Of a stretch of DNA of 64,000 nucleotides, positions 59,434-60,669 are shown piece by piece (the stretch's first letter is position 1; each line of letters begins with the position of its first letter). The translations under genes were made by a program, and so were the position numbers. Source of the DNA: Patescibacteria group bacterium (lineage in GTDB: Bacteria > Patescibacteriota > Minisyncoccia > Phycocordibacterales > Phycocordibacteraceae); NCBI GenBank assembly GCA_004322365.1, contig SCTS01000007.1, forward strand, positions 18,266-82,265. The letters are read 5' to 3'. The notes under the pieces were generated by a model, which was not told the origin of the DNA, did no database searches, and saw only the letters and a program-made list of their open reading frames with translations.

Positions 59434-59520
59434 GGAGAGGTGGCAGAGTGGTCTAACGCACCGCACTTGAAATGCGGCGTCCGGGGAACTGGACCGAGAG
59501 TTCGAATCTCTCCCTCTCCG
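59434..59520 (+). tRNA. tRNA-Ser (anticodon TGA), class II long variable arm; no CCA encoded
   Basis: GGAGAGGTGGCAGAGTGGTCTAACGCACCGCACTTGAAATGCGGCGTCCGGGGAACTGGACCGAGAGTTCGAATCTCTCCCTCTCCG. Confidence 0.9.
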
Positions 59521-59682
59521 CAAATACAAAATGGCGCCTAAGGCGCCATTTTGTATTTGCGGACTCGACGCATCTGATGCCTCATCACCCTGTCGAGGGT
59601 TCGCGCCGCTGGGCGTAAGCGAGAATGAAAGGTAAAATACTTAGAGACTCGTGACCGAATCTCACCTCACTCACAGCAAATA
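59521..59682 (+). mobile_element. tRNA-3'-end cassette (Ser copy): an 18-bp-stem hairpin, then an internal segment ending in TTAGAGACTCGTGAC plus a degenerate duplicate of the tRNA-Ser T-loop-to-3' end (CCGAATCTCACCTCACTCAC)
   Basis: Hairpin CAAATACAAAATGGCGCC-TAA-GGCGCCATTTTGTATTTG. CTGTCGAG…TAAGCGA…GGTAAAATACTTAGAGACTCGTGACCGA aligns with the His cassette. The duplicate matches the tRNA 3' end CGAATCTCTCCCTCTCC with substitutions. Confidence 0.65.
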
Positions 59683-59715
59683 TCTTTCATCGGGTGACCT
59701 AGTTGCCTAAAATCT

Positions 59716-60342
59716 ATGAATAAGCGCTGGACTGTCGAAAAAATAAAAGAAGGGTTTGGGCGTTTTGTAACAGAGTATGGACGCCTGCCTATGGCGCCCG
59801 AAATTGATAAATTGGACTACCTGCCATCAGCACGACTAATTCAATCAAAATTTGGAGGTCTTGAAAAACTTCGAGCAGTTCTTGGCTATAAAGACACGCA
59901 CTTTGGAAAAGGAAAATTCAGAAGCAAGATCGCCACTCGGGTAAACGCTCGTGGTCGAGATGCTGAATTGGCTTTAGAAAAGGTTTTACGAGAAAAGTTC
60001 GGTGAAGTGTTCGTGCACACGGAAAGGTTTTTTGATGATTCAAAAAACCGAGTTGATTTTTACGTTTATTCCCCAGACGGAAATTTTGGAATTGACATCT
60101 TCTATACAGATACCATGCGCGATTTACAAAAAAACATAAACATAAAAATCGATAAGTATTCAAAATTTCCACACCAGCTATTTCTTGTGGTCGGAAATAA
60201 AGATTTTTTGCAAACTGACTTGAACGAGTATGTAACTTTAAAAACAAAGACGTTGCCGGAAAATACCACGATCACTAACTTGGAAACACTCTTTGAAAAA
60301 CTCGAAAATAGAAAAAGTTACTCAGACCCTCTAAAAAAATAA
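59716..60342 (+). CDS. hypothetical nuclease-like protein (possible PD-(D/E)xK fold) with an N-terminal helical domain
   Basis: 208 aa. …ELALEKVLREKFGEVFVHTERFFDDSKNRVDFYVYSPDGNFGIDIFYTD… resembles a restriction-endonuclease-like core. Flanked by a 20-bp direct repeat (59663-59682 / 60615-60636). Confidence 0.5.
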   Translation: MNKRWTVEKIKEGFGRFVTEYGRLPMAPEIDKLDYLPSARLIQSKFGGLEKLRAVLGYKDTHFGKGKFRSKIATRVNARGRDAELALEKVLREKFGEVFVHTERFFDDSKNRVDFYVYSPDGNFGIDIFYTDTMRDLQKNINIKIDKYSKFPHQLFLVVGNKDFLQTDLNEYVTLKTKTLPENTTITNLETLFEKLENRKSYSDPLKK

Positions 60343-60356
60343 CCCTCAATCTGAAC

Positions 60357-60563
60357 TCAACAGTTTTGAGCTTTTTTCGCTCTGTAAAATATGAGAAGCA
60401 CTGCCGCATTAGCGTTGAGTACCTGGTTGTAGTCTTTACTATAAAATGACCAGCCATCGCGCAACATTTCGTTCGTAATCATCTCCTCATCCCGAACATC
60501 TACACTTTTATGAGTGAAGTCATACTTTTTTCTTCCTTCATAGTCATTTTTTATCTCCGACAT
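60357..60563 (-). CDS. hypothetical small protein (68 aa)
   Basis: TAGTATAAT lies 7 nt upstream of the ATG, suggesting a leaderless or short-leader transcript. Co-directional with 60670..61347. Confidence 0.4.
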   Translation of the reverse strand: MSEIKNDYEGRKKYDFTHKSVDVRDEEMITNEMLRDGWSFYSKDYNQVLNANAAVLLIFYRAKKAQNC

Positions 60564-60669
60564 GCAAGCATTATACTAGGTACTAGTTTTTTTACTGTCT
60601 TTCGTACCCATTAAAGCCTGAATCTCACCTCCTCCACCCGAAGTATTTAGTATCGGAAAACCCGAGTAC

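Follow-up and report, generated by a model that had tools for sequence, protein, structure and literature searches.

In a 64,000-nucleotide (nt) stretch of DNA from a Patescibacteria group bacterium (GenBank assembly GCA_004322365.1, contig SCTS01000007.1, positions 18,266 to 82,265 of the forward strand; hereafter the window), the region behind the tRNA-Ser(TGA) gene, from 59522 to ~61500, is probably a decayed tandem array that arose by serial site-specific insertion of small non-autonomous units, mobilized in trans, into the 3' part of the tRNA gene. Serial insertion at tRNA-Ser had been proposed in an initial annotation of the window; the comparison with related loci, two displaced copies of the tRNA tail and a layout that recurs at other tRNA genes support the proposal, and no recombinase was found in cis. 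The first unit belongs to a family of gene-less structured cassettes with at least 120 loci, and the second carries a gene for a 208-amino-acid (aa) protein, here called FAM208, with a predicted nuclease-like fold.

Layout of the tRNA-Ser Locus

The tRNA-Ser gene is intact, and the island starts one base past its 3' end. The features of the locus are given below in window coordinates; loci from other genomes are referred to by L numbers.

59434-59521, + strand: intact tRNA-Ser(TGA) gene (ARAGORN; Rfam tRNA 55.9 bits)
59503-59521, + strand: C56-to-3' end of tRNA-Ser, CGAATCTCTCCCTCTCCGC, the 'left copy' of the array
59522-59558, + strand: perfect 17-bp palindromic hairpin with A-tract and T-tract, terminator-like by sequence and fold
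59559-59563, + strand: GCGGA (complement of TCCGC), the 5-nt start of the segment antisense to the acceptor, whose remainder is deleted relative to the Ser cassette of L028
59564-59655, + strand: type-A scaffold remnant, 3' part only, with AAAATACTTAGAGACTCGTGAC at the junction end (nhmmer; identity to the His cassette)
59641-59655, + strand: motif TTAGAGACTCGTGAC of the tRNA-Ser locus
59656-59682, + strand: copy 1 of the tRNA-Ser C56-to-3' end, CGAATCTCACCTCACTCAC (59656-59674), plus trailer AGCAAATA
59716-60342, + strand: 208-aa gene FAM208, probable cargo of the second unit (predicted N-terminal four-helix domain and C-terminal PD-(D/E)xK domain)
60357-60563, - strand: 68-aa open reading frame (ORF), orphan
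60618-60658, + strand: copy 2 of the tRNA-Ser tail, CTGAATCTCACCTCCTCCACC (60618-60638), plus conserved 21-nt flank CCGAAGTATTTAGTATCGGAA (60638-60658)
60670-61347, - strand: 225-aa gene inside the island, without family assignment and not present at the tRNA-Ser site of L026-L028
61472-61485, no strand: bidirectional terminator-like hairpin immediately before an aldo-keto reductase gene (terminator scan)

Copy 1 starts directly after the cassette junction, which lies between GTGAC and CGA. The island probably reaches ~61.5 kb and includes the 225-aa gene, which is possibly the cargo of an older, third unit. The hairpin at 61472-61485 is a possible original right edge; homology to L027 resumes at 61558.

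The Displaced tRNA-Ser Tails

The initial annotation had placed degenerate copies of the tRNA-Ser 3' end at 59663-59682 and 60615-60636. Both are real tRNA-Ser tails, although the positions were off by 8 and 3 nt and the copied allele is not the resident one. Copy 1, CCGAATCTCACCTCACTCAC, lies at 59655-59674, and copy 2 at 60618-60638. When only the final 24-26 nt of the resident tRNA serve as the reference, a local score of 18-20 is attained elsewhere in the window but by neither copy. If the reference is extended by the trailer GCAAATA, copy 1 has a score of 24, which exceeds that of every one of 12,534 background windows, and copy 2 a score of 17, which 0.7% of them reach. Against the resident tail alone the repeats are thus weak, but they are strong against other tRNA-Ser alleles. 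When nine Patescibacteria tRNA-Ser 3' ends were used as a panel, copy 1 scored 27 (with the allele of L052) and copy 2 scored 32; over the 16 nt GAATCTCACCTCCTCC, copy 2 is identical to the L052 allele. Panel scores of at least 26 occur at only 7 of 10,662 window positions and scores of at least 32 at 4; the positions themselves are not listed, and we take the seven to be the tRNA-Ser gene and its two copies. In addition, copy 2 and its 21-nt flank (60620-60658) share 36 of 39 positions with the stretch that follows the tRNA-Ser(GGA) cassette in L073. Given the scores against the allele panel and the match to L073, both copies are real tRNA-Ser tails that derive from a non-resident allele.

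A putative third copy beside the terminator (61440-61458) scored only 10 against every tRNA-Ser allele and was rejected. The motif GTGACCGA on its own is not significant, with 3 matches in the window and at least 3 in 7 of 100 shuffles.

The displaced copies represent an allele with the T-stem CTCAC and the acceptor CTCCTCC, which is close to the allele of L026 and L028. The resident allele, which is also that of L027, differs from it in both acceptor-stem strands. We hypothesize that the tRNA-Ser allele was replaced later, possibly through co-conversion with a neighboring HNH gene. An HNH endonuclease gene (58953-59432, + strand) adjoins the 5' end of tRNA-Ser and occupies the same spot in L027 (8232-8708), while it is absent in L026 and L028. 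The HNH proteins of the window and L027 share 91% amino-acid identity, compared to only 62% for PilM. The HNH gene and tRNA-Ser allele shared by the window and L027 may reflect a homing-type co-conversion of the tRNA.

Comparison with Syntenic Loci

Three syntenic loci (L026, L027, and L028) were found through PilM homologues. All keep the same five tRNAs as the window, while the presence and type of cassette vary per tRNA and per genome:

Ser(TGA) cassette: window, remnant; L026, empty; L027, none; L028, full
His cassette: window, type A; L026, type B; L027, type A; L028, none
Arg(TCT) cassette: window, type B; L026, type B; L027, type C; L028, none

Empty-site alleles had been named in the initial annotation as worth looking for, and L026 provides one: the same tRNA-Ser is followed by only 65 bp and then by a flavokinase gene. 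The relatives are distant (PilM 62-70% identical), so that exact empty-site junctions cannot be aligned. In L027 other genes lie behind tRNA-Ser, and in L028 a full cassette does. The homology between the window and L027 (84%) breaks off right at the 3' end of tRNA-Ser (59522) and is found again from 61558 on, within the aldo-keto reductase gene. The intervening ~2 kb, which hold the cassette relic, FAM208, the orphan ORF and the 225-aa gene, constitute an island.

A Family of Structured Cassettes at tRNA and tmRNA Genes

In the window, three of the five tRNAs, those for His, Arg(TCT) and Ser, are followed by cassettes, while tRNA-Val and tRNA-Leu are not. The two besides the Ser cassette are:

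48670-48891, - strand: full type-A cassette downstream of tRNA-His (nhmmer E = 3e-15)
55026-55177, - strand: type-B cassette, with a shorter scaffold, downstream of tRNA-Arg(TCT) (nhmmer partial match, E = 4e-4)

The His cassette consists, in order, of a terminator hairpin, an antisense segment GGGTTGCTA, a hairpin, a second antisense segment CAGGGAATCGAA, the scaffold, the end motif TTAGTGACTCGTGAC up to the junction, and the copy CGACTCCCTGTAGCCACCC (48670-48688); this copy matches the tRNA-His tail at 19 of 20 positions and is followed by a second, native terminator. The end motif of the Ser locus recurs in this His cassette. The Arg(TCT) cassette has the antisense CAGGAATCGAA (55121-55131) and a truncated copy CGATTCCTGCAGG (55026-55038), and an orthologous cassette is present in L026.

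A search of Joint Genome Institute (JGI) metagenomes with a strict 25-nt pattern of the type-A end identified at least 120 loci; the same pattern gave 0 matches in viral contigs. Among the 121 matches listed, 78 have a tRNA on the same strand within 450 nt upstream, and at least 28 isoacceptors are represented. The bases that follow GTGRC at the junction copy the C56-to-3' end of the upstream tRNA, with 19 of 19 nt identical in ~30 cases among the matches listed. Several other listed matches lie behind transfer-messenger RNA (tmRNA) genes, some as 3-4 tandem cassettes. The orientation of the cassette is always that of the tRNA.

An intact cassette starts with the tRNA tail, followed by an A/T-flanked terminator hairpin and a segment antisense to the 3' strand of the acceptor. 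The middle often contains a conserved hairpin (AGCAAGCAAACTGCTTTGCTTGCGT), and then a segment antisense to the T-stem and T-loop (..GGGAATCGAA). The scaffold comprises AGnCGGAG, a variable hairpin, CGAG, GGGGTCGnGA(A/G)CACTTnG and a TTTT...AAAA hairpin, and the cassette ends in CTTAGTGA(T/C)TCGTGAC at the junction, after which comes the tail copy. Type A is defined by the helices P2, P_x and P_y and by an end of ...TTAGNGAYTCGTGRC before the junction and CGA after it. A terminator hairpin lies directly behind the tRNA in every cassette examined, in a set of 13 as well as in a set of 53.

The scaffold is conserved as a structure. Over 53 cassettes and 29 proposed pairs, 95.3% of the cells hold standard pairs, compared to 33-44% in slid controls, and the covariation score of 0.468 exceeds that of the slid controls (at most 0.134) and was reached by none of 500 shuffles. 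The scaffold helices contain 23 G-U versus 7 A-C combinations, which marks the tRNA-sense strand as the one that is folded. In the 3' domain, the outer helix extends across the junction. When the cassettes were compared with Rfam 15 at gathering as well as permissive thresholds, only tRNA matches were found, with no ribozyme, intron, tmRNA or small-RNA family. Tandem islands at tRNA and tmRNA genes are already well known. Covarying cassettes of ~190 bp that lack a gene and serve dozens of tRNAs by means of embedded copies of the target were found neither in the full-text literature, which is not proof of absence, nor in Rfam, and the family seems undescribed.

The Ser Cassette as a Relic

The initial annotation had described the interval between tRNA-Ser and copy 1 as a 160-bp cassette of a structured family. 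It is a member of the family, but only as an internally deleted remnant. A profile built from metagenomic cassettes only matches the Ser cassette (nhmmer) just at 59627-59655, corresponding to profile positions 86-114 of 114 (E = 0.003), while it covers the full length of the tRNA-His cassette of the window (E = 3e-15). The segment 59615-59661 is ~80% identical to the His cassette (E = 1.7e-5), and the Ser cassette of L052 ends as that of the window does (AAAATACTTAGAGACTCGTGAC). The full Ser cassette of L028, in contrast, contains GCGGAGGAG, a hairpin and GAGAGATTCGAA. No antisense match scoring at least 18 was found in the Ser cassette of the window, which retains the terminator, 5 nt of antisense (GCGGA, 59559-59563) and the last 80-90 nt of the scaffold. 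Judged from these sequence comparisons, it appears to be a relic from which ~90 nt have been lost internally.

Retargeting between tRNAs

The closest scaffold neighbors are usually found at different tRNAs. The scaffolds of L109 (Gly) and L148 (Trp) are 91% identical, and the alignment of these two with L112 (Ser) is almost invariant over the last ~75 nt, while the left modules (tail, terminator, and antisense) and the right copies of the three are unrelated. One scaffold subtype also serves several tRNAs per genome, at Arg(TCT), Arg(GCG) and His in L026 and at His and Ser in the window. Given that ~40 coordinated positions have changed at a scaffold divergence of only 9%, point mutation does not account for the change, and we infer that the target-matching parts were acquired from the target by some templated route. 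At positions where the two tail copies of a cassette disagree, the antisense segments follow the left one, which belongs to the functional tRNA.

Cargo Genes and the 208-aa Protein

The layout of tRNA, cassette, tail copy, gene unit and tail copy is also found at tRNA-Glu (L003) and tRNA-Gln (L014). In L003, tRNA-Glu and a cassette are followed by a 188-aa gene and a FAM208 homologue that are enclosed by tRNA-Glu tails; as the unit is bounded by such tails, it supports serial insertion with cargo. In L014, tRNA-Gln and a cassette are followed by a unit with a Zn-ribbon ORF, and a NucS/SduA-like nuclease with DUF5655 (5025-5936) lies in or next to a tRNA-linked unit. L083 (27-1277, in cassette orientation) encodes an N6-methylase and a Type I specificity domain. 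The cargo of these other tRNA-linked arrays is thus of a predicted nuclease, defence or restriction-modification type.

The 208-aa ORF of the second unit had been called restriction-endonuclease-like, and a fold search favors a PD-(D/E)xK-type fold. The protein is identical to EPO14_03895, a hypothetical protein of Patescibacteria group bacterium. In its AlphaFold model (predicted local distance difference test score, pLDDT, 83.5), an N-terminal four-helix domain precedes an alpha-beta-beta-beta-alpha-beta core, so that the protein is predicted to be nuclease-like, with a restriction-endonuclease-like core fold. Invariant in FAM208 are E84 on the helix (E88 is nearly so), D114 on strand 2 and D127 on strand 3; position 129 is F instead of K, and the invariant K110 and K147 are located elsewhere. 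The same core, in which the helix as well as strands 2 and 3 carry invariant acidic residues, is that of the PD-(D/E)xK superfamily (restriction endonucleases, Hjc/VRR-NUC, XisH, and CdiA-CT tRNase). FAM208 differs from it in the absence of a sequence-level family, the displaced (D/E)xK lysine, the extra N-terminal four-helix domain and the frequent pairing with an Xer-like gene. We found 245 homologues; among 120 listed, all but one (a 152-aa fragment) have ~200-229 aa, with 59-76% identity. The homologues with a named source come from Patescibacteria-type metagenome-assembled genomes, and none carries a family annotation. The 208-, 68- and 225-aa proteins gave nothing significant against Pfam, PHROG, PADLOC, NCBIfam and PDB sequences, and the comparison of folds alone was informative.

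FAM208 is found a short way behind a tRNA at five or six loci: Ser, Glu, Gln (three loci) and one near Asn. About ten other genomes have it at a conserved chromosomal position, and in at least five of these (six loci: L005/L010, L011, L016, L018, and L020) it directly follows an Xer-like tyrosine recombinase gene; this conserved pairing points to a functional connection of the nuclease-like protein with a recombinase. In L005 (3030-4621), the two genes are 14 bp apart. No FAM208 gene was detected by tblastn among the 120 cassette loci. FAM208 is thus a mobile accessory gene that sometimes occurs in tRNA-linked units and is not exclusively cargo; as far as can be seen, it is not part of the cassette machinery.

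As for the other ORFs of the island, the 68-aa ORF reported on the opposite strand does exist, but it is probably not a gene, its sole match among 5.8 billion proteins being itself. The 225-aa protein has 1,027 representative homologues (E up to 1e-3) and belongs to a widespread uncharacterized family.

Proposed Mechanism and Alternative Explanations

From these observations we infer the direction and chemistry of insertion and the kind of enzyme as follows. The junction would lie in the T-loop, between U55 and C56. Each unit would have a tRNA tail (C56 to the 3' end) at its start and a terminator hairpin of its own right behind it, and each new insertion would rebuild a complete tRNA and shift the older tails downstream. 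At tRNA-Ser, unit 1 would be a miniature non-coding cassette that was crippled by an internal deletion of ~90 nt, unit 2 would carry the gene for the 208-aa PD-(D/E)xK nuclease-like protein, and a third unit may carry the 225-aa gene. In an intact cassette, the pairing of antisense with tail would place the junction at the base of a long branched hairpin, and the folded single strand might, with low confidence, be what a trans-acting enzyme encoded outside the element uses as its recombination site or as a guide handle. The closest mechanistic analogy would be a tyrosine recombinase that acts on a folded site, as in integron attC or CTX-phi attP.

The absence of a recombinase gene in cis, as stated in the initial annotation, held for four ORFs tested: the three ORFs of 59.5-61.5 kb and the upstream HNH gene, which encodes an endonuclease, have no match to recombinase families. 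In tblastn searches with FAM208, an Xer-like recombinase, HNH, and the 225- and 68-aa proteins (p225 and p68), no enrichment at cassette loci was found.

Several results weigh against an array built by serial insertion. No recombinase, reverse transcriptase or transposase is recognized in the island; the families shared among 911 clustered ORFs around 120 cassettes are all housekeeping (MiaA, ClpB, IF-2, ParB, SmpB, FtsH, and P-type ATPase); and tblastn with one Xer-like query detected an Xer-like gene within reach at 1 of 120 cassette loci. With no enzyme beside the cassettes, mobility in trans has therefore to be assumed. No scaffold or antisense is recognizable just upstream of copy 2, so that unit 2 is defined by its flanking tails only, and no excised or circular form was observed. 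In the about ten genomes in which its position is conserved, FAM208 is not beside a tRNA but is flanked by the ribosomal L9/L27 genes on one side and by an M23 peptidase gene on the other. The resident tRNA-Ser matches the copies poorly and its 5' half is also incompatible with them; one therefore has to suppose that the tRNA allele was replaced later or that the copies are of foreign origin. Finally, the better match of the antisense to the functional tRNA fits equally a Campbell-type model, with crossover in the T-loop and the left copy as the incoming one, and a right copy that came with the element and simply decayed.

The cassettes might instead be functional structured non-coding RNAs, produced by read-through from tRNA and tmRNA genes, with a tRNA-like fold (acceptor-like stem, T-like stem, and large 'T-loop' insert) and processing by RNase P/RNase Z, and acting as a decoy, a regulator or a tRNA-maturation device; the tails would then be parts of the RNA, not scars. 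The strong covariation with an excess of G-U over A-C in the tRNA-sense strand, the constant orientation of cassette and tRNA, the minimum-free-energy fold of the His cassette, which pairs the antisense with the downstream tail (z = -5.9), and the high sequence conservation over many lineages would suit such an RNA. We consider it unlikely, however, in view of the strong palindromic terminator between tRNA and cassette in every member, the lack of an Rfam match, the tandem stacking with enclosed protein-coding cargo, and the differences in presence and type at the same tRNA between close relatives; moreover, the right copies are often truncated or degenerate, yet the antisense stays matched to the functional tRNA. 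Even less probable, in our view, is that there was no serial insertion at all and that the site is an ordinary hot-spot of recombination and deletion, with the 208- and 225-aa genes as resident accessory genes and the copies as relics of an old tRNA-Ser duplication or pseudogene. The contents of the site differ in each relative, FAM208 is chromosomal and syntenic in about ten genomes, the copies score low against the resident tRNA and no scaffold precedes copy 2, all of which would be expected at such a hot-spot. Copy 1, however, begins right at the conserved cassette junction, just as the copies of more than 100 other cassettes do, both copies start at the T-loop position that is common to the whole family, L073 has copy 2 together with its flank behind a different cassette, tRNA-Glu tails bound FAM208 in L003, and no 5' tRNA halves lie beside the copies.

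Very unlikely, finally, is an RNA-based mobility like that of short interspersed nuclear elements, in which a scaffold RNA with a tRNA tail would anneal to the nicked tRNA gene, target-primed reverse transcription would duplicate ~20 nt of the target, and the antisense would arise by snap-back copying from the terminator hairpin. It would account for a left module (tail, terminator, and antisense) that forms one long palindrome centered on the terminator loop, for retargeting faster than point mutation allows and for the identity of the folded with the transcribed strand. On the other hand, the palindrome is imperfect at the boundary of tRNA end and trailer, many members have a conserved extra hairpin between the antisense segments that copying of a tRNA could not produce, the antisense fits the gene and not the CCA-tailed mature tRNA, and no reverse-transcriptase-like gene was found among the clustered cassette neighbors, among which no reverse-transcriptase profile was run.

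Serial insertion of units mobilized in trans may be extended by a more specific proposal, which we offer tentatively and regard as possible but doubtful: that the cassettes are a natural insertion system programmed by base pairing. In such a system, the ~120-nt scaffold would be the handle for a trans-acting recombinase or nuclease. The antisense, in two parts of ~9 and ~12 nt with a conserved hairpin often between them, would designate the 21-nt tail of the tRNA or tmRNA gene to be targeted, and on the move to a new tRNA it would be renewed on a template, for example through palindrome correction or snap-back copying against the adjacent tRNA. The element would fold as RNA or as single-stranded DNA. 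The system would be abundant in Patescibacteria and able to drag along nuclease or restriction-modification cargo. If it is true that antisense directs insertion, integration sites are chosen by base pairing in a new way, in genomes that are very small and contain few known mobile elements, and the shuttling of single defence-type genes, such as that for the 208-aa protein, between Patescibacteria is explained; the programmed system would then be a guide-bearing mobile element of an undescribed kind. Also on the conservative reading, the cassettes are a large unannotated structured family whose members are otherwise mis-called as ORFs or pseudo-tRNAs.

Relation to Known Systems

Genomic islands classically insert at tRNA and tmRNA genes, and their specificity there normally resides in a protein integrase that is tied to one site. 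Like such islands and their recombinase-less derivatives, including cis-mobilizable elements (CIMEs), the units described here are found in the 3' part of a gene that is restored, have direct repeats of the tail at unit boundaries, accrete in tandem, have empty sites in relatives and carry nuclease and restriction-modification-type cargo. Unlike them, the units are tiny, either ~190 bp and gene-less or ~1 kb with one gene, no integrase is nearby, and they combine a folded, covarying scaffold with antisense copies of their target. One scaffold, moreover, serves at least 28 tRNAs and tmRNA, whereas an integrase family normally keeps one or few sites. The tandem ssrA islands of Dehalococcoides are an example of integrative elements at tRNA/tmRNA genes (PMC3146451).

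Integron attC cassettes and CTX-phi-type elements integrate as folded single-stranded DNA via IntI or XerCD (PMC4792948, PMC3442271). The likeness to them lies in short promoter-less cassettes that form arrays and have at their end an imperfect hairpin made of the core and its inverse copy, in the conservation of structure partly in place of sequence, and in a recombinase that acts in trans on the folded strand, as proposed here. In contrast to integrons, there is no integron integrase nearby, no attI and no GTTRRRY core; the 'core' here is a 19-21-nt tRNA tail, and the scaffold, which may fold as DNA or as RNA, has the conserved blocks CGGAG, CACTTAG and TTAGTGAYTCGTGAC. R''/R' core sites (RYYYAAC / GTTRRRY) were not found at the junctions. 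The Xer-like gene beside FAM208 in other genomes scores far below the integron-integrase cut-off.

The bridge (seek) RNA of IS110/IS1111 elements is likewise a non-coding structured segment with target-matching sequences and two guides split by a hairpin, and it is programmable in principle. Both antisense segments of the cassettes, however, pair with the same strand over ~21 contiguous nt, whereas the bridge-RNA guides pair with the two target strands, and the direct repeat has 19 nt, compared to a 2-nt core in IS110/IS1111. We rejected this assignment, given that the cassettes have no large ORF and that no IS110-type gene of 330-400 aa was found among the clustered neighbors, with no specific DEDD profile search run. 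TnpB/IscB omega-RNA elements are not known to leave a long direct repeat, and they were rejected on anatomy. A group I intron in the T-loop was rejected on the grounds that there was no Rfam intron match at E up to 10, that the element ends in C and that the tRNA is complete, and a retroviral-type primer-binding site on the grounds that the antisense fits the gene and not a CCA-tailed tRNA. TIGR-Tas arrays, likewise rejected on anatomy, have dual repeats of 8-12 nt in tandem, spacers A and B of 9 nt, and a Tas gene with a Nop domain next to them (PMC12045711), while the cassettes are single units of ~190 nt, with no repeat array and no Tas-like neighbor.

Remnants at Other tRNA and tmRNA Genes

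Displaced tRNA tails are usable as markers for the history of insertion. Downstream of tRNA-Arg(GCG) in L027 (2350-2611, - strand), four successive partial tails (CGATTCCTGCC...) each follow a scrap of a cassette 3' end and are a compact record of repeated insertion and deletion. The neighborhood of tRNA-Arg(GCG) in L028 is overlapped by a gene (2422-4086) for a 554-aa large serine recombinase, which represents an ordinary integrase-bearing element. Behind tRNA-His of L026, two units are followed by the native terminator and the conserved flank CACTAGTTT. In this array, as in those of L027 at tRNA-Arg(GCG), L014 and L003, every unit opens with a tail copy. Cassettes at tmRNA (ssrA) genes are found in L035 (cassette end near 797), L058, L059, and L116; in some of the tmRNA contigs, the tails of tandem cassettes have shrunk to a recurrent CGATGAACC that is joined straight to the next antisense segment. 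Past the truncated tRNA-Arg copy, the window (55000-55025) and L027 (~12783-12810) share CGATTAGAAAATCGT(A/G)CCGAGAGGCTGG, which resembles an internal stretch of the tRNA-His cassette of L027 and suggests nested remnants of older cassettes.

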